64,000 bases of DNA from Candidatus Blackburnbacteria bacterium (GTDB lineage Bacteria; Patescibacteriota; Microgenomatia; UBA8517; UBA10165): positions 486,479 through 550,478 of the forward strand of contig JACPEJ010000001.1 in assembly GCA_016183565.1 (NCBI GenBank), read 5' to 3'. The translations under genes and the position numbers were made by a program. Numbering within the stretch: position 1 is the stretch's first letter; the number at the start of each line of letters is the position of its first letter. Under the pieces are notes generated by a model that worked only from the letters and a program-made list of their open reading frames with translations, made no database searches and was not told the origin of the DNA. Of the stretch, positions 3,014-54,133 are shown piece after piece.

Positions 3014-6000
3014 ATGATAAAGTTGCCGGTTTCTTGTAAAATTAGCTTTACTTTTGCAATATTATTCTTTATTCTTGCTTCTTTTCCCTCGATAGCCAAG
3101 GCTTCTAATCACAGGTGTGGAGATTACAACGTAACACAACAATGCGCATTTGTAGAATCACTTCCTGTAACATACCCCAGTGGTTGTAGCGGAGCCAGAG
3201 ATTTGTATAACTGTAATGGCTTAACTTGTGCTATTGAATCTGCTCCCAGTTGTAGCGTTGTACAGCGTGTTTGTGAATATAATAGCGACAGATATAACTG
3301 TGGAGAAGCTTTCGCCGATCCCAGCTACTGCAAAACAGTTCTTCAAGGCGGTGATGGGGTAGGAGGATATGGCTCAATAAATACGTGGCCACCCAATCGC
3401 AATAGTCAAAACGCCTATTGCGGTAAGTACAAAGACTCTGATCCTCGTGACCCGCGTCCTTATTGTGATGATTGGTGGAACGCTTGTTTAGCAAGCTGCG
3501 AAGGAGCTACTTCAGACACTAATTATGCATGTCCAGGAGTTCAACAGTGTGACCAGTCTCACGTTTGTGTTACTCAAGCACCACAAACCACTTTGTTGGT
3601 TAATAGCCAGTCTTCGGTCACTATTACAGAAGGCAATAGCGCAACTCTTGCCTGGTCTTCAGTTCGAGCCGAAACGTGTACGGCGTCGGGGGCATGGAGT
3701 GGCGGTAAAGTACATCAAGGCAGTGAGTCTACAGGTGATTTATCAGTCAGACAGGGGGACGGAAATCAGTCTACTTATACTTATACGTTGACTTGCTCGA
3801 ACACAGCCGGAAGTGGAAATAGCCCTGTGAGTGTTACAGTTATTGTTACGCGGGCAGCCACTCCCAACACCCCAACTCCCACTACTCCAGTTATAACAAA
3901 CACACCTACTCCTACTGCCACCACTGCTCCACCTTGGACTTGTGATGTTTGGTCCACAGAGGGAGACAGAAATGCTGCGGGGGGGGCGTGCAATGCAAAT
4001 GAGTATTGCGTTGAACTTGGTGGAACTTACAATGATCCGAATAATGCAATAAGGTGGCCTGTGCAGCAGAATTGGACTTGGGGGTCAAACCTAACACCCG
4101 CGAGAACTTTTAAGAGTTTCCCCTACAACAGCAGTACTTTGGTTAATATGACTGCGGTTGATAATAGCGGTTCAGGCACTTCTCAAGCTTGCACTCCCAA
4201 AACTGTGAATGTAGGTCCTCAGAGTAATCCCGGAGGAACAACACCTACTCCTAATCGTGGGGGTGGAAGGGCAACACCCACTCCAACGACCGGGCAACCT
4301 TTGTCAGGTACTGGAGCAATAAGGTTTTTTAACTCTAATTGTATTACCCCCTATACTGGCCCAAGTACTTTGCGCGTTCTAACACATGCTCAGTTTGGTG
4401 ATGGATCATGGGAAAACGGGAACGGGCATAACAGCTTGTTTTACCCCTCTGTTACTCATAGTAGCGCTCAGGATACAGGTATTTGTGACAGGCGGGAGTG
4501 GCATTATTATTATGATCCTGGTTATCAGATTAGTAGCGATGGCACTTTTGCCGGCTGTCCTGCTCAAAATATGGATGGTACCGGGGAATGGGTGTGTACT
4601 GGGCAGCCAGATTGTGGTTACAATGCGTACGGAGACTGGGAATGCCAGCAGTGTCCAGGCTACAGGGATGGTGAAGGCAATGACGTTTGCAAAGAAGATA
4701 CTGATTCGGAAGAAAGATTTCCCCGTTGCTTTTCCGCTTTTTCCAGTCCTGCAACAATAACTTCTGCTAACCCAACTCTTAGTGTGCACAGCGAACGCAG
4801 TATGCAAAGAACTTTTAGTGTCGGAGCCCCAACAGGTGTGAGGATTAAGGTTATTAGGGTTTGTACTGGGGATGGGTGTAATTGGTCCAGGGTTGGTGAT
4901 CCTTCTGTTTCTCCTAATGGAGGTGGTGGTGCTAGTGTTGTTAAAGACTTTGGTACGAGCAGCGCCGGGCCCACTAATTACTTCGCAAGTCCCATGGAAG
5001 GAGCCGATGGTAATACAAGCTCATATGTGTATGATGTTTGTGTTGAAGATGGTACTGGTGGGGTTACTGTTGGCGGTAATGTGTTTACTGATTATGGTTG
5101 TGATGGGAGGAAAGATGCTGTTGATACGAATTATGGAGGCGCGAGGATAAGGATTACCGGGGGAAGTACGGACGAGATAAAGACAACCGATAGCTCGGGC
5201 AATTATACTTCCTCTGCGCTTGTGAAGGGGCAAAACTATACTGCAGATGTTGAGGTGCCTTCGGGCCACCGAGCGTCTACAACAGACCCGTTAGTCTACA
5301 ATAATCTTAATAGTAATATTACTAATGCTAACTTTGGGTTTTGTCCTACTGCATCTTCTTGGTTTCAAACTAAAGATTCGGATTTGCTCTCTTCCGGGAA
5401 TATGAATTCAAGCATTCCTAGGCAGTGTGTACAGCAGTTGGATTCTTGTTCGCCGTATCTTTCTTTAAATGGGGATGGGGGGTATCCTGGGGTACCTGTT
5501 TATAATGGTACTTTGAGTTTAGGTTGGGGGACGGTTTCAGCAAATACTTCGTCAACCGGTTGGAATGCGAATACGCGATATACAGGTCGAGCATATACTT
5601 ATGCGTCGTTTGCTGCAAAGATGCCAACGAGCGGGGTAACAACGACCCCCGATACTATTGATAGTGATGGTTACTTTAGCTTAAGCGGGACTCCTGACAG
5701 TAATGGGTATAAGTGGTTTAAGGCTACTGGCAACTTAACGATAAATGGGGAGGGCAATATTAACAATCAGAAAGTGATTTTGTTTGTGCCTGGGAATTTG
5801 ACAATTAACAATAGAGTGAGGCTTAGGAAAGGGGAAGGGTTTTTTGCGGTGTTTGTTGGGGGAGAGATATCAATAAGTCCGGAGGTAATCTACCAATCTC
5901 AACCTGCGCCAAAGAGTAATTCGCAACCCGGGCTTGAGGGGATGTTCTTTGCTGATGGGAATATAAGGACTGGTACAAGAAGTACTGCAACACCTGTTAA

Positions 6001-9746: not shown

Positions 9747-10889
9747 ATGGCCCTAGTTAAGCCTGATACATCTCGTTTAGCAAGAATAAGAGTTGTTGCG
9801 ATTGGTGGTGGGGGAGGAAACTCGATTGCTCATATGATCGAGGAGACGAGAATTGATGGAGTTGAATTTATTACGGTTAATACAGACGCCCAGGTACTTC
9901 TTAATAATCCCGCGGATACAAAGCTTCAGATTGGGGAGAAATTAACTCGTGGTTTAGGTTCCGGTGGCGATCCCGGTATGGGGGAGCAGGCTGCTGAGGA
10001 GTCTCGGGAAAGGGTAAAGGACCTTCTTTTGGATTCGGATATGGTTTTTTTGACGGCTGGGATGGGGGGTGGGACGGGAACCGGCGCAACCCCGGTTATT
10101 GCACAAATCGCAAAAGAATGTGGTGCTTTGACGGTTGCTATTGTTACGAAACCTTTTGCTTTCGAGGGAACTCGGAGGATGGTTGTTGCTGAGGAAGGGA
10201 TAGAGAAGTTGAATGGGAATGTTGATGCTTTGATTGTTATTCCGAACCAGAGGCTGATGGATGTTATAGATAGGAGGACAACTCTTGCTGATGCGTTTAA
10301 GGTTGTTGATTCTGTGCTTTCGCAAGGTGTACAAGGAATTTCTGAGATTATTACGACACCTGGTCTTATTAACGTTGACTTTGCTGATGTCAGGGCAATT
10401 ATGAAGGATGCCGGGTCTGCGCTTTTGGGAATAGGAACGGGGGTTGGCGAGAACAGGGCGCAGATGGCGGCACGGGCCGCGATTTCTTCTCCGCTTCTTG
10501 AGGTTTCTATAGAGGGGGCAAAGGGGGTTCTTTTTAATATTGCCGGTGGTCCGGATATTACGATGTCTGAGGTTGATGAGGCAGCAAGGATTATTTCGGA
10601 GAATGCTGATGCTGATGCAAATATAATTTTTGGAGCGACTGTTAATCCTAAGCTTTCGGATCAGATAAGAATTACAGTTGTTGCAACTGGGTTTGATGAG
10701 ATGCGGGCGAGACTGGGGCGTATGGTTAATCCTGTAAAGCCAGCTCCTGTTCAACCGGAGGGTCTTATTAGCCAGCTTCCTGAGACGCGACCTGAGATTA
10801 GTCGTCCGATTATTCGGGAAGATAATGAGAAAGATGAGTGGGGTGAGAAGTTTGAGATTCCAGCATTTCTCCGGAAGGGGAAGTCGTAG
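9747..10889 (+). CDS. ftsZ: Cell division GTPase FtsZ
   Basis: RVVAIGGGGGNSIAHMIEE, VNTDAQ, the tubulin signature GGGTGTGATPVIAQIAKE, NVDFADV, and a C-terminal tail. Confidence 0.95.
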   Translation: MALVKPDTSRLARIRVVAIGGGGGNSIAHMIEETRIDGVEFITVNTDAQVLLNNPADTKLQIGEKLTRGLGSGGDPGMGEQAAEESRERVKDLLLDSDMVFLTAGMGGGTGTGATPVIAQIAKECGALTVAIVTKPFAFEGTRRMVVAEEGIEKLNGNVDALIVIPNQRLMDVIDRRTTLADAFKVVDSVLSQGVQGISEIITTPGLINVDFADVRAIMKDAGSALLGIGTGVGENRAQMAARAAISSPLLEVSIEGAKGVLFNIAGGPDITMSEVDEAARIISENADADANIIFGATVNPKLSDQIRITVVATGFDEMRARLGRMVNPVKPAPVQPEGLISQLPETRPEISRPIIREDNEKDEWGEKFEIPAFLRKGKS

Positions 10890-10907
10890 TTTACAAAATA
10901 AATTTTT

Positions 10908-10925
10908 AAGGGGACGCCTTGCAAC
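10908..10925. repeat. REP palindrome copy a (reverse orientation): aaggggacgccttgcaa
   Basis: Reverse complement of TTGCAAGGCGTCCCCTT. Imperfect palindrome TGCAAGG-CGTCC-CCTTGCA. Confidence 0.7.
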
Positions 10926-10934
10926 CGTACTGAA

Positions 10935-11612
10935 CTAGTCGTCTTCAATAATTAGGTTGCTAGTTATCTGAGGAATTTCTTCCAATGCCATAAATTGTAT
11001 GTAGGACTTATGCTGTGTTTTGGGAAAGAAATTCAGAATTTCCTCTGGATGGATCCACGTGGTGTTGCGTAGTCCGCAATATTCGGGGTAGGAGCTTGGT
11101 TGGTTTTGCAAGGCGTCCCCTTGCAGGATTAAGGCTTGTTTGTGAATATACCGTGACAGATGCAGAAGCTGTTCATCAGTTTTAACAAGAACGGCTTTAT
11201 AGACATCTTGGTATAATGGTCCGACTCTCTTATACTTGGAATTAAAGTACATGGTATAGCGGGTTCCTAATGAGTTCATAAAGGGGTCAATTGCACTTTG
11301 GTTATTTTGTTTGATAAGAATGTGAAAGTGGTTGGGCATGAGGCAATATGCAACGAGGATAATGTCTGTTGCGAAGTTGTTAAGCCGAAGTAGCTTTCTG
11401 ATTCGATCTTTCTCATAAGGTGAGGTTGATTGATTTCCTAATTGCTCCATAAGTAGGTCTTTGTTAGCAGGTAGCAAGTATGTTTTTAGATAGGATAGGA
11501 ATACGCCGTAGTCCTGTTGATCCTGAAAGATAAGCCTTTTCTCTACCCCGCGGTTGTAGATATGGTAGTATCCGGTTGTTACATACTCCTTAACACTGTT
11601 TTTGGAGGGCAT
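10935..11612 (-). CDS. IS200-like / REP-associated tyrosine transposase (RAYT, HUH Y1 family)
   Basis: YHIYNRGVEKRLIF ... LVAYCLMPNHFHILIK (HUH motif) ... LSRYIHKQ (catalytic Tyr region). 225 aa. Confidence 0.7.
   Translation of the reverse strand: MPSKNSVKEYVTTGYYHIYNRGVEKRLIFQDQQDYGVFLSYLKTYLLPANKDLLMEQLGNQSTSPYEKDRIRKLLRLNNFATDIILVAYCLMPNHFHILIKQNNQSAIDPFMNSLGTRYTMYFNSKYKRVGPLYQDVYKAVLVKTDEQLLHLSRYIHKQALILQGDALQNQPSSYPEYCGLRNTTWIHPEEILNFFPKTQHKSYIQFMALEEIPQITSNLIIEDD
11104..11127. repeat. REP palindrome copy b, embedded in-frame in the RAYT ORF
   Basis: ttttgcaaggcgtccccttgcagg encodes ILQGDALQNQ on the minus strand, immediately after the RYIHKQ motif. Confidence 0.65.
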
Positions 11613-11640
11613 ACCTTAGGTTAATGGTATTGATTTGGTT

Positions 11641-11674
11641 TTGCAAGGTGTGCAAGGCGTCCCCTTGCAGGGGT
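11641..11674. repeat. REP palindrome copy c (tandem partial plus full copy)
   Basis: ttgcaaggtg tgcaaggcgtccccttgcagggg. Confidence 0.7.
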
Positions 11675-11713
11675 GGGTTGGGTAATGCAAATTATGGGGG
11701 AATGGGTATATAA

Positions 11714-14671
11714 TTGGGAAATATGGCTTCGGGAAAATTTAAATCCATCGACAAAGCTCAGGACCGAAATAAATTTCGGCCTGTTGATACTAAGGTTGAT
11801 TTTGTGGCGTTGGAGAGGGAATTGTTAAAGTTTTGGTATGATGCGCAGATTGTTGACAAGTACTTGACTAAGAATAGTGCTTCAGAAAAAAAATTCTCTT
11901 TTCTTGATGGCCCAATTACAGCTAATAACCCGATGGGGGTTCATCATGCCTGGGGTAGGACATACAAAGATTTGTTCCAGCGGTTTAAGAATATGCAGGG
12001 TTACAAACAGCGTTTTCAGAATGGGTTTGATGAACAAGGTTTGTGGGTTGAGGTTGAGGTGGAGAAAGAACTAGGGCTTAAAAGTAAAAAAGATATTGAA
12101 AATTTAGTGCCTAAGGATAAGTTTGCCTCTTTGGAAAAGTTTGTAAACTTGTGCAAGGAAAGGGTCAAAAAGTATTCTCTAGTTCAAACAGAACAGTCTA
12201 AACGTCTTGGTTATTTCATGGATTGGGATAATTCTTACCATACATCTTCAGATGAAAACAATTACTGGATTTGGCATTTTTTAAAAACTGTCCACGATAA
12301 AGGGTGGTTGTATAAAGGAAGAGACTCTGTGCCATGGTGCCCTCGTTGTGGTACAGCTATTTCACAACATGAGATTTTAACTGAGGAGTATAAGGAAGTA
12401 ACACACCAATCGGTTTTTGTAGAATATCCAGTATCCGGACAGGAAAACACTTATCTTCTTGTTTGGACAACTACTCCGTGGACACTACCGGCTAATGTGG
12501 CTGTTGCAGTTGATCCGAATTTGGATTATGTGCAAGTTGAAAAAGAAGGGAAGGTGTATGTTGTTGCTAAGGGTGCGGTGGGGAGGGTGTTTGGGGATCT
12601 GCCAGCCGGCGGAAAGGTGATTAGGGAATGCAAGGGAATTGATCTAGTTGGTTGGGTGTACGAGGGTCCTTTTGATAATTTGCCTCGTGTCAGGAAATCT
12701 TTAGGAGAATATAAACACGAAGCTGTTGCTACGGATCCTCTTATTTTGCCTATTAGCGATGAGGAAGGAACCGGTCTTGTGCATATTGCGCCTGGTGCAG
12801 GCTCTGAGGACTTTCAGCTGTGTAAAAAGCTTGATCTACCTGTAATTGATATTATAGATGAAGGCGCGGTTTTATTAGGAGAGTTGGGGGAGTTGGGGGA
12901 GTTGGGAGTAAAGGAGGTAATTCAACCGATTGTTTCTTACCTTGAGGAAGGTGGTTATTTGTATAAGGTTCAGGGGTATGTTCACCGATATCCGACATGT
13001 TGGAGATGTAAATCGGAGCTGGTTTGGAGGGTAGTTGACGAGTGGTACATAGCGATGGACAGGCCATCGAAATCAAAAGTCAAAAGGGAAACTTTTAGGG
13101 AGCAGATGATAGAGGTTGCGAAGAAAATAAATTGGTTGCCGAAATGGGGGTTGGACAGAGAATTAGATTGGTTAAAGAATATGCACGATTGGCTAATATC
13201 TAAGAAAAGATATTGGGGATTGGCTCTGCCAATTTGGGAATGCCGCAAATGTGGTAATTTCGAGGTGATTGGGGGTAAAGATGAACTGAGAGAAAAAGTA
13301 GTAGAAGGTTGGGATGAATTCGAGGGACATTCTCCACACAAACCTTGGATTGACCAACTGAAAATAAAGTGCTCTAAATGTAATGAGGTAACATCACGTA
13401 TTCCTGATGTTGGGAACCCTTGGTTGGATGCCGGGATAGTACCATTTTCCACAATGCCTGCGGATTGGTTCCCTGCGGATTTTATAACCGAAAGCTTCCC
13501 TGGACAATTTAAGAACTGGTTTTATGCTTTGATTGCCATGTCCACGGTCCTAAAAAGAACAAATCCTTTTAAGAGTTTATTGGGGCATGCTTTAGTGGTA
13601 GATGAAAAGGGAGAGCCAATGCACAAGAGTTCTAAAAACTTTATACCTTTTGATGAGGGAGTAGAAAAAATGGGGGCAGATGTTATGCGCTGGATTTACT
13701 CCTCACAGGATCCTTGTGCCAATGTTCCTTTAACGTACGGTATGGGGGAAGAGAAGAAGAGAAGGTTCTTTTTGATGCTTTGGAATGTTTATAACTTTTT
13801 TGTGACTTATGCAAACCTTGATGGGTGGGGGGAGGGGAATAGTTCAAAGGATATTAAATCGCAGAATATTTTGGATAGGTGGGTTATTTCTCGGTTATAT
13901 GGGACGGTAGATGAGGTAACAAAGTCTTTGGAGAATTATGATGCCAGGACTGCTGTAAATTGTATTGAGGAGTTTGTTCAGGATTTGTCTTTGTGGTATG
14001 TGCGGCGTTCTAGGGACAGAGTAGGTGTTACTGCAGAAGACTCAGCGGACAAACAATCTTTTTACCTTACGCTTTGGAGTGTTTTGACAACCCTCTCGAG
14101 GCTTCTTGCTCCTTTTGTTCCTTTTGCATCTGAGGAGATTTACAAGAACTTAACAAGAGGAGATTCTGTTCATCTTGCCTCTTGGCCTTTAGGTAACGCG
14201 GAATTGCGAGATGAGACGTTGGAAAAAAATATGACTCTTGTTAGGAAGATTGTAGAGAGAGGGCATGCGGTGAGAAAGGAGGCAAGCGTTCCGGTACGGC
14301 AACCGCTAGCAAGTGCAAAGTGCAAAGTGAAAAGTGAAAAGTTAAATGAGGAAGTACTTCAGTTGATTAAAGATGAGCTAAATGTAAAAGATGTTGAGTG
14401 GGAGGTGCAGAATGACTTAAAAGATCCGGAAGTTGAACTTGATACAACAATAACCCCTGAACTTGAAGAGGAGGGAAAAGCCAGAGAATTAGCAAGACAG
14501 ATTCAGGAGGAGAGAAAAAAGCTTGATGTTCCATTGGACGAGAAGGTGAATGTTGTTGCTCCTTGGTTGCCCGAAAGGTCGGAGGTTTTAGAGTGGCTGA
14601 AACGTAGGACTTTGGTGCAACAGTGTTCGACAGGTGATAAACTGCTGGTGGAGAGGGTAGATGAGGGTTGA
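11714..14671 (+). CDS. ileS: Isoleucyl-tRNA synthetase
   Basis: WTTTPWTLPANVAV (IleRS-specific); GFDEQGL; a degenerate HIGH region (MGVHHAWG); a KMSKS-like MHKSSKN; zinc-knuckle CPRCGT/CWRCKS; 985 aa. Confidence 0.85.
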   Translation: MGNMASGKFKSIDKAQDRNKFRPVDTKVDFVALERELLKFWYDAQIVDKYLTKNSASEKKFSFLDGPITANNPMGVHHAWGRTYKDLFQRFKNMQGYKQRFQNGFDEQGLWVEVEVEKELGLKSKKDIENLVPKDKFASLEKFVNLCKERVKKYSLVQTEQSKRLGYFMDWDNSYHTSSDENNYWIWHFLKTVHDKGWLYKGRDSVPWCPRCGTAISQHEILTEEYKEVTHQSVFVEYPVSGQENTYLLVWTTTPWTLPANVAVAVDPNLDYVQVEKEGKVYVVAKGAVGRVFGDLPAGGKVIRECKGIDLVGWVYEGPFDNLPRVRKSLGEYKHEAVATDPLILPISDEEGTGLVHIAPGAGSEDFQLCKKLDLPVIDIIDEGAVLLGELGELGELGVKEVIQPIVSYLEEGGYLYKVQGYVHRYPTCWRCKSELVWRVVDEWYIAMDRPSKSKVKRETFREQMIEVAKKINWLPKWGLDRELDWLKNMHDWLISKKRYWGLALPIWECRKCGNFEVIGGKDELREKVVEGWDEFEGHSPHKPWIDQLKIKCSKCNEVTSRIPDVGNPWLDAGIVPFSTMPADWFPADFITESFPGQFKNWFYALIAMSTVLKRTNPFKSLLGHALVVDEKGEPMHKSSKNFIPFDEGVEKMGADVMRWIYSSQDPCANVPLTYGMGEEKKRRFFLMLWNVYNFFVTYANLDGWGEGNSSKDIKSQNILDRWVISRLYGTVDEVTKSLENYDARTAVNCIEEFVQDLSLWYVRRSRDRVGVTAEDSADKQSFYLTLWSVLTTLSRLLAPFVPFASEEIYKNLTRGDSVHLASWPLGNAELRDETLEKNMTLVRKIVERGHAVRKEASVPVRQPLASAKCKVKSEKLNEEVLQLIKDELNVKDVEWEVQNDLKDPEVELDTTITPELEEEGKARELARQIQEERKKLDVPLDEKVNVVAPWLPERSEVLEWLKRRTLVQQCSTGDKLLVERVDEG
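12881..12908. repeat. In-frame 9-bp tandem repeat (gagttgggg x3) inside ileS encoding LGELGELGELG
   Basis: Direct reading. Confidence 0.6.
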
Positions 14672-16083: not shown

Positions 16084-16172
16084 GATACAACTCGTTTCAA
16101 AACTCGTAGATTAATCTTATTAAATTTTTTGAAACGAGATTGGAGAAGCTGTTTTGAAACAGCTTCATAAAG
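16084..16172 (+). repeat. Copy A of a roughly 90-bp structured repeat element (two hairpins) in the rpmA leader
   Basis: gatacaactcgtttcaaaactcgtagattaatcttattaaattttttgaaacgagattggagaagctgttttgaaacagcttcata. Near-identical to 54045-54133; 5' and 3' parts shared with 40675-40764. Confidence 0.6.
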
Positions 16173-40674: not shown

Positions 40675-40764
40675 GATACAACTCGTTTCAAAACTCACGC
40701 GTTAGCTTCCGCTAACTTGTGTAAAGGTGAGATTGGAGAAGCTGTTTTGAAACAGCTTCATAAA
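40675..40764 (+). repeat. Copy B of the structured repeat element, in the gatC leader (variant central segment)
   Basis: gatacaactcgtttcaaaactc...gagattggagaagctgttttgaaacagcttcataaag. The central part is replaced by the gttagcttccgctaac hairpin. Confidence 0.55.
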
Positions 40765-42480: not shown

Positions 42481-43868
42481 TGAAGACTCGACAACGACAA
42501 CACGAACCAGTAATCGGTCTTGAGGTGCACGTGGAGTTGAATACAGAATCTAAGATGTTCTGTTCTAACTCGACGCAATATTTTGGGCAAACGCCAAATA
42601 TTCATACATGCCCGGTTTGTTTAGGCTTCCCCGGAGCTTTGCCGTATACAAACAAGAAAGCCATTGAGTATTGTATAAAGATTGGTCTTGCCTTGGGTTG
42701 CGAGATTGCAGAAGAAACCGTATTTGAACGCAAGAATTATTTTTATTCTGATTTGCCAAAGGGGTATCAGATTTCTCAATATCGTTGGCCATTATGCAGA
42801 GGTGGAAGGATGGTGGTTAAAAACAAGGTAGGAGAAGAAAGGGAAATAAGGGTAAACAGGGTTCATATGGAGGAGGATACGGCGAAATTGGTGCACCAGT
42901 TTGGAATTTCCAATTCAAAAGGAGCTACGCTGATAGATTTTAATCGATCTGGTGTGCCGTTGGTGGAAATTGTGACCGAGCCGGATTTTAGGGATTTGGC
43001 TGAAATTAGAGATTATGCCAAGAAACTTCAGCAGGTTATGCGGTATCTCGGTGTTTCAAACGCGGACATGGAGAAAGGGGATATGAGACTAGAGGCGAAC
43101 GTATCCGTTCGCCAAGTTCAAAGTTCAAAGTTCAAAGTTCAAAATGAATTACCAAAATACAGAATTGAATTGAAGAATATTAACAGTTTTAGGTTTATGG
43201 TGGCGGCTGTTCAATATGAGATAGAAAGGCAGATTGAAGCTCTAGAGAAAGGAGAGAAGCTTGTGCAGGAGACAAGGGGTTGGGATGAAAATAATAGGAG
43301 AACATATGTGCAGCGGGTCAAGGAGGAGGCCACTGATTATAGATATTTTCCTGAGCCGGATATACCCCCCATAGAAATAGATAAAGATATAGAAACAGAG
43401 TTGAGAAGGCAGATGCCGGAGCTGCCTTGGGAGAAAACAGAAAGGCTAATCCAAGAATACAGTCTAAGTTCAAGCCAGGCGAGGGTTTTGTCTGAGACAC
43501 AAGAGTTTGCAGATTACTTTGAAGAGGCTGTGAAAGTGGTTAACAGTCTAAGTCTAAGTCTAAGTCTAAGTCTAAGTCCGGTCAGAATTGCCAATGTTTT
43601 AATTAACAAGAAGTTTGATCGAGAGCAAGTTTTACCAGCCAGGTTTGTGGAGATGATACGAGAAGAGGAAGATCGGCCTGGTGTTTCTTCGGAGGAATTG
43701 GAAGGAGCTGTGCATAGTGTGATAGCTGAAAATACTAAGGCAGTTGCGGATTACCGAAAGGGCAAAGAAGCGTCGTTACAGTTTCTCTTGGGACAGGTTA
43801 TGGCAAAGACTCGAGGACAATCTAATCCTGTAGCGATACGAGAAGCATTATTGAGGAATTTGCGGTAG
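42480..43868 (+). CDS. gatB: Asp/Glu-tRNA amidotransferase subunit B
   Basis: VIGLEVHVELNTESKMFC, CPVCLGFPGALP, the C-terminal GatB/YqeY domain. Contains in-frame repeats (SLSLSLSLSLSL; QVQSSKFKVQ). Confidence 0.9.
   Translation: MKTRQRQHEPVIGLEVHVELNTESKMFCSNSTQYFGQTPNIHTCPVCLGFPGALPYTNKKAIEYCIKIGLALGCEIAEETVFERKNYFYSDLPKGYQISQYRWPLCRGGRMVVKNKVGEEREIRVNRVHMEEDTAKLVHQFGISNSKGATLIDFNRSGVPLVEIVTEPDFRDLAEIRDYAKKLQQVMRYLGVSNADMEKGDMRLEANVSVRQVQSSKFKVQNELPKYRIELKNINSFRFMVAAVQYEIERQIEALEKGEKLVQETRGWDENNRRTYVQRVKEEATDYRYFPEPDIPPIEIDKDIETELRRQMPELPWEKTERLIQEYSLSSSQARVLSETQEFADYFEEAVKVVNSLSLSLSLSLSPVRIANVLINKKFDREQVLPARFVEMIREEEDRPGVSSEELEGAVHSVIAENTKAVADYRKGKEASLQFLLGQVMAKTRGQSNPVAIREALLRNLR
43114..43143. 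repeat. 7-bp tandem repeat (aagttca x4) inside gatB
   Basis: Direct reading: gccaagttcaaagttcaaagttcaaagttcaaaatg. Confidence 0.6.
43565..43598. repeat. 6-bp tandem repeat (agtcta x5.5) inside gatB encoding (SL)6
   Basis: Direct reading. Confidence 0.65.
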
Positions 43869-54044: not shown

Positions 54045-54133
54045 GGATACAACTCGTTTCAAAACTCATAGATTAGTCTTATTAAATTTTTTGAAACGAG
54101 ATTGGAGAAGCTGTTTTGAAACAGCTTCATAGT
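54045..54133 (+). repeat. Copy C of the structured repeat element, in the ECF sigma gene leader
   Basis: gatacaactcgtttcaaaactcatagattagtcttattaaattttttgaaacgagattggagaagctgttttgaaacagcttcata. Confidence 0.6.

Follow-up and report, generated by a model that had tools for sequence, protein, structure and literature searches.

Among the closest described systems to the locus reported here is the REPtron, in which a gene for a REP-associated tyrosine transposase (RAYT, or TnpA-REP; REP, repetitive extragenic palindromic sequence) is flanked by REPs or by bacterial interspersed mosaic elements (BIMEs, REPINs); it was reportedly described in E. coli and Pseudomonas by Nunvar in 2010, by Bertels and Rainey in 2011 and by Ton-Hoang in 2012. 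In a 64,000-nucleotide (nt) stretch of a Candidatus Blackburnbacteria bacterium (contig JACPEJ010000001.1; hereafter the window), we found a Y1 HUH (TnpA-Y1 / RAYT-like) gene with one short GC-rich hairpin on both sides and a further copy of the same hairpin inside its own coding sequence. This Y1 HUH module belongs to a large family in bacteria of the candidate phyla radiation (CPR, Patescibacteria). We consider it probable that the module is REPtron-like, and that copies of its cognate hairpin spread over short distances and are retained only at positions that are in frame and permissive.

The general phenomenon of in-frame REPs in genes, tnpAREP included, is already published, and the gain of the present analysis lies in scope and detail. 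Quentin, Siguier, Chandler and Fichant (2018) describe in-frame REPs within the tnpAREP genes of subclass 2.4 (Cyanobacteria, Bacteroidetes) and also note REP insertions in unrelated genes (PMC6006769). Di Nocera et al. (2013) catalogue intragenic REPs and recall the in-frame Rickettsia palindromic elements (PMC3733652). An earlier note on this window had presented in-frame REPs in genes as unusual. The copies within open reading frames (ORFs) do appear, from their sequence, to be repeat-derived and translated, but the two papers above provide the precedent. In a canonical REP, the hairpin foot bears the tetranucleotide GT[AG]G on its 5' side, and class 2 enzymes have the Y motif Y---NP (PMC6006769). 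In the literature library searched, no paper linking RAYTs with Patescibacteria was found.

The Y1 gene, of which the window holds one copy, occupies the gap between the convergent ftsZ (9747-10889, plus strand) and the divergent ileS (11714-14671, plus strand). The gene, its catalytic motifs and the hairpin copies are located as follows.

10935-11612, minus strand: Y1 HUH (TnpA-Y1 / RAYT-like) gene, 225 amino acids (aa), from the ORF list and Pfam Y1_Tnp
11322-11333, minus strand: HUH motif N94-H95-F96-H97, by sequence reading
11148-11150, minus strand: codon of the catalytic Tyr155 in the context R-Y-I-H-K-Q, by sequence reading
10905-10924, minus strand: downstream (3') flanking copy of the hairpin, 2 mismatches, loop opposite to that of the internal copy
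11106-11125, plus strand: internal copy (site B), exact match, stems 11107-11113 and 11119-11125, loop CGTCC
11650-11669, plus strand: upstream (5') flanking copy, 1 mismatch, loop orientation as in the internal copy
60120-60139, plus strand: distant copy, exact match, within the 24-nt unit TTTGCAAGGCGTCCCCTTGCAAAC at 60119-60142

The 225-aa protein is P0001 at 100% identity, 'transposase [Candidatus Blackburnbacteria bacterium]', and scores 43.1 bits against Pfam PF01797 Y1_Tnp (cut-off 23) over residues 68-159. N94, H95, F96, H97 and Y155 are invariant in alignments A1 and A3. The HUH motif aligns with that of ISDra2 TnpA, and Y155 aligns with the YIESQ of the same enzyme. The Y motif is YIHKQA, not the class 2 Y---NP; its Y+4 residue is Gln159, which is Asn in the YIHRNP of relatives, and farther relatives of the same family have YIH[RL]NP. 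The W-motif position is YQ or FQ in the window family. In the AlphaFold model (mean predicted local distance difference test score, pLDDT, 67), helix 146-162 bears Y155. When the model was compared with the PDB by Foldseek, the top 18 matches were all Y1 transposases (probability 0.84-1.00, with weak E-values of ~1e-3), including ISDra2 TnpA, E. coli TnpA-REP (4er8, with a REP hairpin bound), IS608 and IS200. The locus has no tnpB neighbour, and a Pfam scan of the protein found no helix-turn-helix (HTH) or DnaA_C domain.

The 20-mer TTGCAAGGCGTCCCCTTGCA, scored across the window with up to 3 mismatches, occurs at four sites, against 0.00 expected from 100 dinucleotide-preserving shuffles, and each site lies at, or at most 2 nt from, the place where the earlier note had put it. 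The 20-mer forms a 7-bp stem, TGCAAGG/CCTTGCA, around the loop CGTCC (core TGCAAGG-N5-CCTTGCA), and its 9-nt core GGCGTCCCC is confined to the same four sites. A 16-mer of the hairpin, with four occurrences of which three are at the Y1 gene, is the joint most frequent 16-mer of the window; it shares this place with a short tandem hexamer array, AGTCTA repeated, at 43545-43580. For this window, the earlier description of an HUH tyrosine enzyme flanked by mutually inverted copies of one hairpin is borne out.

On the gene strand, the internal copy reads CTG CAA GGG GAC GCC TTG CAA and encodes L162-Q168 within ILQGDALQNQ, in frame and seven codons past the Tyr155 codon. The third copy had thus been placed correctly, inside the transposase ORF just past the catalytic-Tyr motif. 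The structure model places the residues encoded by the hairpin where the Tyr helix ends on its C-terminal side, in a stretch of low confidence (pLDDT 56 for the block 161-170), which fits a permissive position. The internal copy has a stable fold as single-stranded DNA (ssDNA) (-6.9 kcal/mol, z = -3.15), and so does the distant copy (-8.6 kcal/mol, z = -4.24), whose stem is extended to 9 bp across 60119-60141. At the upstream copy, an adjoining duplicated half-arm TTTGCAAGG (11640-11648) enlarges the region to 11640-11669; it has alternative folds at -7.9 kcal/mol and ends 38 nt ahead of the start codon. The downstream copy, 11 nt past the Y1 gene stop and 16 nt past the ftsZ stop, has decayed, with an outer stem CCTTAAA in place of CCTTGCA, and forms no stable hairpin (DNA minimum free energy -2.3 kcal/mol, z = -0.23). 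The four copies have cccc, atcc, cgtt and cggt as 5' neighbours of TGCAAGG, and none has GTAG or GTGG. We found no Rfam match at the window hairpins, no T-run after them and no exact hairpin match in viral contigs; one terminator-like hit (11100-11132) lies on the strand antisense to the Y1 gene, and a promoter-like site lies at 11720-11691.

The locus resembles the REPtron in several respects. The Y1 HUH enzyme is single-copy within the window, with apparently vertical inheritance and a housekeeping-like rate; one short GC-rich palindrome stands on both sides of the gene, with extra copies elsewhere; and enzyme and hairpin change together between lineages. It is nevertheless not the 'classic' REP-RAYT arrangement that the earlier note had named. 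The protein fails the RAYT equivalog NCBIfam NF047646 REP_Tyr_transpos (35.5 bits, cut-off 80), the hairpin has no 5' GT[AG]G foot, YIHKQ replaces Y---NP, and one dispersed copy in 63 kb compares with tens to hundreds per genome. The inverted flanks, which had been counted as a classic feature, are not typical of the family either, where the flanking copies are mostly direct (17/23 related loci). The host, moreover, is a reduced-genome CPR lineage, and the contig with the locus measures 686 kb. In Bertels 2017, the flanking 16-mer has 57-140 occurrences in groups 2 and 3 and ~12 per replicon in group 1; the hairpin density here, 4 in 64 kb and counted in the window only, resembles that of group 1.

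A homologue search returned at least 7918 matches at E <= 0.001 among the best 8000 scored candidates. A profile search gave 22,870 clusters (50% identity) at E <= 1e-3 and 636 at E <= 1e-30, and metagenomes supplied 80 further homologous loci at 37-66% identity. We compared the flanks of 50 loci in which the gene has 90 nt or more of sequence on either side, taking as linker the 126 nt past the catalytic Tyr and as controls linkers or flanks paired with the flanks of other loci. An upstream/downstream repeat pair is present within 90 nt of the gene in 38/50 loci versus 9/400 mismatched-locus controls, and a stretch of 13 nt or more (up to 38-47 nt) is common to the post-Tyr linker and both flanks in 22/50 loci versus 14/800 controls. 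Nearly all flanking repeats are GC-rich stems around AGG...CCT, and in this set, which was pre-selected for pairing, many different Watson-Crick pair types surround the constant apex. The shared hairpin depends on the lineage: it is CCTGCAGGGCCAGGCCCTGCAGG in L043, CCTGCGAGGTCCGACCTCGCAGG in L044, ACTTCAGGTTCCGAACTTGAAGT in L050, CCTTTCGGGAGTCTCCCGAAAGG in L069, AAAAGGACTAACCTTAAAGGAGT in L017 and CAGCTTCAAAAGGAAGTTCCTT... in L019, with TGCAAGGGGACGCCTTGCA as the version of the window.

When whole genes were scanned against their own flanks, matches were found in 37/60 loci (~60%) and were confined to two sites, site A at residues 46-59, before HUH, and site B at residues 141-167, just past Tyr. 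Six loci (L043, L049, L064, L069, L035 and L059) have both sites occupied, with copies at gene positions of roughly +150 to +175 and +450 to +480 nt, and eight further loci have site A alone. No internal copy is present in the other 23/60, most of which retain flanking hairpins. Minimal relatives (YIHxNPxxYxxWxxSS) likewise have flanking hairpins and no internal copy, and sites A and B are length-variable in the alignment with them. Losses also occur near the window protein, where the close relative L013 has no site B segment and close homologues with intact ORFs carry clean site B deletions (KQALALQDQP, KQALPLQP, KQALILRNQP and KQALNLDNQP). In L028, a second Y1-like ORF (11994-12775, a 245-aa open frame) lies 1.3 kb downstream with the same inverted hairpin doublets, and the two genes are tandem paralogues.

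The consensus of the close homologues is RYIHKQALALQGDALQxQPSSY, and site B is occupied in ~105/120 of the best-matching ones and in loci down to ~40% identity. Since nearly all close homologues carry an LQGDALQ-type peptide, the segment is not lineage-specific, and the in-gene copy is not a recent insertion but the consensus state of the close subfamily. The earlier note had held that the same peptide in the homologues would speak against an insertion. At the peptide level the homologues do share it, while the DNA evidence still points to a repeat origin. The insertion reading is right in substance and wrong in date, and the interpretation given in the earlier note is, as a whole, partly supported. 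In a scan of 185,579 species genomes, the exact 20-mer was present in Daviesbacteria, Levybacteria, Parcubacteria and another Patescibacteria genome, and the Daviesbacteria loci L001 and L009, which have a homologue, again carry it upstream, within the ORF and downstream. In P0100 (L002), the in-ORF 20-mer is flipped and encodes LQGVPLQ in place of LQGDALQ.

Such flips are visible across the subfamily. The loop tripeptides of 105 close homologues are GDA (47), GEA and GET (13 each), GVA (8), GDP (7), GLA (6), GQA (5), GVP (3), GDS (2) and GLT (1). They are mostly reverse-complement partners (GDA/GVP, GEA/GLA, GET/GLT), which correspond at the DNA level to GAC/GTC, GAG/CTC and CAG/CTG between GGN and NCC. 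The residues adjacent to the loop co-vary as well (Q..L 79, Q..F 3, K..L 5, K..F 6; Fisher p = 4e-5, computed without correction for phylogeny), as base pairing of CAA:TTG versus AAA:TTT would predict. Judged from these sequences, the conserved entity at site B is the DNA, not the peptide.

The copies of one locus also change in concert. The sister species L090 has GGGGACCCC, reading GACCCC, in 3/3 copies, and the window has GGGGACGCC in 4/4. Since each species has its own variant in all copies, one substitution has been carried to every copy. This homogenisation is imperfect, since the flanks and the internal copy of L002 differ at two loop bases. The orthologue P0002 of the sister species (66% identity) lies in the same ileS-ftsZ gap of this second Blackburnbacteria species, and its divergence falls between those of the neighbouring FtsZ (79% identical) and FtsW (56%), which indicates vertical inheritance at a housekeeping-like rate. 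A tblastn search of the 80 metagenome loci with FtsZ, IleRS and the neighbours found no synteny; synteny was seen only in the sister species, and distant lineages carry the Y1 gene in other genomic contexts. Within the window's species, 100% identity was found between four independent assemblies across the locus, and neither a flipped loop nor a gained or lost copy was seen. The four independent short-read (Logan) assemblies of this species, L096-L099, share one break point, which lies inside ileS and ~620 nt upstream of the Y1 gene.

Outside the locus, the hairpin of the window occurs once, in the following gene.

59492-64000, running off the window, plus strand: giant gene encoding P0121 (open frame 59486-64000+)

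The hypothetical protein P0121 (1531 aa) starts with a signal-peptide-like N-terminus and continues with ~260 acidic residues of low complexity; the distant hairpin sits in this acidic N-terminal region. This fourth copy matches exactly and, as the earlier note had said, is in frame within the ORF of the giant protein, where it reads F-A-R-R-P-L-A-N (FARRPLAN). There is no target-site duplication at 60119-60142. The C-terminal 899 aa of P0121, searched against 5.8 billion proteins at E <= 1e-10, matched only themselves. A query with residues 3-605 returned no homologue among the best 8000 candidates, which low-complexity word matches had apparently crowded. Contigs of strain variants that carry the upstream neighbour of the giant gene were all short and stop where its low-complexity region begins, ahead of the hairpin site. 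Both embedded copies of the window keep the reading frame, as had been pointed out earlier, but this means less than it seemed to. The 24-nt unit has zero stop codons over all six frames, four of which were found used in real ORFs. Since any insert of 3n nt would remain open, frame preservation is weak evidence.

Dispersed copies in protein-coding genes are also found in related genomes. In two Daviesbacteria, the 20-mer lies in frame (AARGRLA[KR]) in a gatA-like amidase gene (L009 3-1196, plus strand; L005 3690-5135, minus strand), in the context …NCF[HL]KASPRRAARGRLA[RK]IGVPKEYFAEGLDP…, also written …KASPRRAARGRLA[KR]IGVPKEYF…. This site appears to be a variable loop. In L058, a gene 4.5 kb away from the Y1 gene encodes a multi-pass membrane protein of 646 aa, and the hairpin of that lineage, ACGAGGTTCAACCTCGT, lies in it in frame (5474-5490, read as TRFNLV).

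IS200/IS605 transposases recognise subterminal ssDNA hairpins and make no target-site duplication. By analogy with such solved Y1 relatives, the enzyme of the window would bind the short GC-rich hairpin in ssDNA and would cut and rejoin DNA beside it, presumably via a 5'-phosphotyrosine intermediate. The cognate hairpin would stand on both sides of the gene and occasionally be copied elsewhere, mostly nearby. With hardly any intergenic space in these genomes, new copies may survive only where they are harmless, in tiny intergenic gaps or as in-frame segments of 3n nt in loops and disordered regions. Two such permissive loops would lie in the gene of the enzyme itself, site B, which is occupied in the window, and site A near residue 50. 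Site B has probably long been occupied in the subfamily and kept similar to the flanks by concerted evolution, possibly through gene conversion between copies ~0.5 kb apart or through replacement mediated by the enzyme, and the internal copy may have no function of its own.

Several observations weigh against this explanation. The pairing of the enzyme with the hairpin is an inference from solved relatives, and the co-variation statistics take no account of phylogeny. Spreading is weakly documented, as dispersed copies are rare: the window has one in the 63 kb outside the locus, and the long related loci that were scanned usually have 0-2 per 20 kb. The distant copy lies in an orphan protein, which leaves no homologue to compare for insertion, and the hairpin of the gatA-like gene takes the place of the variable loop without making the protein obviously longer, a poor fit to simple insertion. 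The hairpin lacks the 5' GT[AG]G guide of canonical REPs, and no shared target or guide motif adjoins the four window copies. Two observations would also fit selection for the internal copy, namely that site B has persisted for so long and that the internal segment of L093, which has diverged from the flanks, still forms a hairpin (8/9 bp).

These last two points bear on the main rival, according to which the in-gene hairpin is not a tolerated passenger but a functional cis-acting site that could serve autoregulation by cis binding, join enzyme and substrate in one heritable unit, or act as a protected master copy for the flanking and dispersed copies. Site B persistence keeps this alternative alive, as does the way in which internal copies follow the flanks through many changes of hairpin sequence; in the window itself, decay has affected the 3' flanking copy but not the internal one. 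However, the internal copy is absent from 23/60 loci, most of which keep their flanking hairpins, and close homologues have lost the segment cleanly with the ORF intact. Two hot spots and free orientation are what a tolerated insert would be expected to show, and no regulatory signal was found at the window copy, where the sole terminator-like hit is antisense. With frequent loss, free orientation and two positions counting against it, we consider a cis-acting role unlikely, although it is the strongest of the alternatives. If the hairpin were kept because it is used, enzyme and substrate would be inherited and co-evolve as an indivisible unit, with cis-preference or a master copy, and thousands of natural enzyme/hairpin pairs would form a readable specificity code for Y1 HUH enzymes.

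The remaining alternatives fit less well than a REPtron-like module with locally spreading hairpins. The hairpin-gene-hairpin unit could be an autonomous insertion sequence (IS) of the IS200/IS605 type, with the flanks as its ends and the internal copy as a relic end or an alternative one. The protein has the fold and catalytic motifs of IS608 and ISDra2 TnpA, which are among its best PDB matches; the Y motif Y-x-x-x-Q is that of class 1 transposases (PMC6006769, Table 1); flanking copies lie on the same strand in most related loci, like the ends of IS608; genomic context varies between distant lineages; and the L028 paralogue has the same flanking doublets. In contrast, the gene is single-copy in 64 kb and without tnpB, and its orthologue sits in the conserved ileS-ftsZ position with a divergence between those of FtsZ and FtsW. 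One and the same hairpin forms both ends, in place of different left and right structures, this hairpin has no exact match in viral contigs, and the 225-aa protein with its conserved C-terminal tail is not the ~150-aa IS200 core (PMC6006769); an autonomous element is therefore improbable. It is still less probable that the hairpins are ordinary host structures, such as terminators or mRNA-stabilising stems, and resemble the internal copy incidentally. The 3' copy does lie between the convergent ftsZ and Y1 stops, a common place for REPs (PMC3733652), and the promoter-like site would put the 5' copy in a transcript leader. But the lineage-specific arrangement recurs around this gene family in dozens of unrelated contexts, no T-run or Rfam match accompanies the window copies, and the 3' copy is unfolded. 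The least likely reading takes LQGDALQ for a conserved protein motif, the palindrome for a by-product of its codons, and the flanks for chance or gene fragments. In its favour, the close subfamily has this peptide as its consensus, and two LQ dipeptides coded TTG CAA give complementary arms (TTGCAA is self-complementary). However, the flanks are non-coding and yet identical to the internal copy, the peptides of other lineages differ (PAGPGPAG, TSGSELEV, PFRESPERL, KGLTLKE) and each matches its own flanks, flipped loops alter the peptide (GDA to GVP) and keep the DNA, and the region is of low confidence in the structure model. Flank co-variation and loop flips rule this explanation out.

Other described systems share single features with the locus. 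In phiX174 gene A and pT181 repC, the HUH nick site lies inside the enzyme's own gene, at a replication origin with demonstrated function. The window resembles them in having a putative recognition hairpin inside the coding sequence of an HUH enzyme; they are, however, origins of autonomous replicons, whereas use of the internal copy of the window is hypothetical. Rickettsia palindromic elements (RPEs), reportedly described by Ogata in 2000, and intragenic GTAG/CGTC REPs are likewise in-frame palindromes in probably functional genes, including housekeeping genes. Unlike RPEs, which are ~100-150 bp long and have no known enzyme, the unit of the window is 20-30 nt long and tied to the Y1 gene that carries it.

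Subclass 2.4 shares with the window family a cognate repeat in the enzyme's own gene with the frame kept, flanking copies, and an insert in a peripheral, variable part of the protein (PMC6006769). In comparison with this description, the sites of the window family fall outside the HuH-Y interval (before HUH at about residue 50, and just past Tyr). The signature differs too, NH[IFV]H/WQ/YIxNNP and ~194 aa in subclass 2.4 against NHFH/[YF]Q/YIH[KRL][QN][AP] and ~225 aa here, and the REPs of subclass 2.4, long or of 'double foot' type, carry GT[AG]G, unlike the window hairpins (PMC6006769). Loop flips, a match to the own flanks across lineages and concerted evolution were not found in the sections consulted of that paper.

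By eye, and without the authors' profiles, the closest motif signature is that of subclass 2.1, or TIRYT-TIRtron (Bertels group 1), given in Table 1 of PMC6006769 as NH[YF]H, FQ for WQ, Y[IV]HLNP and 'SS' in the proximal tail, with ~238 aa. An SS(Y) tail motif can also be recognised by eye in the window family, and its flanking repeats share the low genomic abundance of those of the TIRtron. TIRYT genes are flanked by inverted repeats with a GGGGWSAS motif (Di Nocera 2013, PMC3733652), and this terminal inverted repeat (TIR) consensus resembles GGGGACGC of the window hairpin at 7/8 positions. However, subclass 2.1 is reported to be without REP-like hairpins and to carry C-terminal HTH/DnaA_C-like domains (PMC6006769), whereas the window flanks are true hairpins, the tail has no HTH-like domain, and long relatives carry SH3_3. 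An affinity with subclass 2.1 through a C-terminal HTH domain is thus unsupported. Among the 150 best family representatives, ~35 are 350-460 aa long. A C-terminal bacterial SH3 domain (Pfam SH3_3) follows the Y1_Tnp core in P0153, P0186, P0190, P0192, P0204, P0219, P0229 and P0242 (8/8 tested), with 39-60 bits in seven (cut-off 27) and 22.5 bits, under the cut-off, in P0242. Such an HUH-SH3 fusion was unexpected.

Two further observations concern repeats. The exact 20-mer also occurs in three Rhodoferax/Gammaproteobacteria-binned contigs of 42-55% GC (L003 7132-7151, L007 1906-1925 and L008 1712-1731), all without a Y1 gene; in L003 and L008 the match lies in a long ORF and reads LQGDALQ. Chance alone would give about one exact match in 596 Gb, and three proteobacterial matches are slightly odd, either unexplained or due to chance. 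In the window, a second dispersed repeat that is unrelated to the hairpin lies on the plus strand at 16084-16160, 40675-40750 and 54046-54122. Its unit of ~75 nt consists of GATACAACTCGTTTCAAAACTC, ~25 variable nt and GAGATTGGAGAAGCTGTTTTGAAAC and holds the inverted repeat GTTTCAAAAC/GTTTTGAAAC. All three copies stand upstream of plus-strand ORFs, with no Rfam match.

The co-evolution of RAYT-type enzymes with their repeats is known mainly from Proteobacteria. In the present, very large family (22,870 clusters), the cognate hairpin can be read beside the gene in the loci examined and inside the gene in ~60% of them. The family shows how such repeats behave in a genome with almost no non-coding space, where copies are few and local and several dispersed ones lie in frame inside proteins, including a gatA-like housekeeping gene. 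For annotation, LQGDALQ-type segments of such 'transposases' should be read as repeat-derived and not as a protein motif. What makes the finding valuable, as a lineage-wide form of a phenomenon reported before, is how large and regular the pattern is, together with the matched enzyme/hairpin pairs, which are a resource for the question of how Y1 HUH enzymes choose their DNA.

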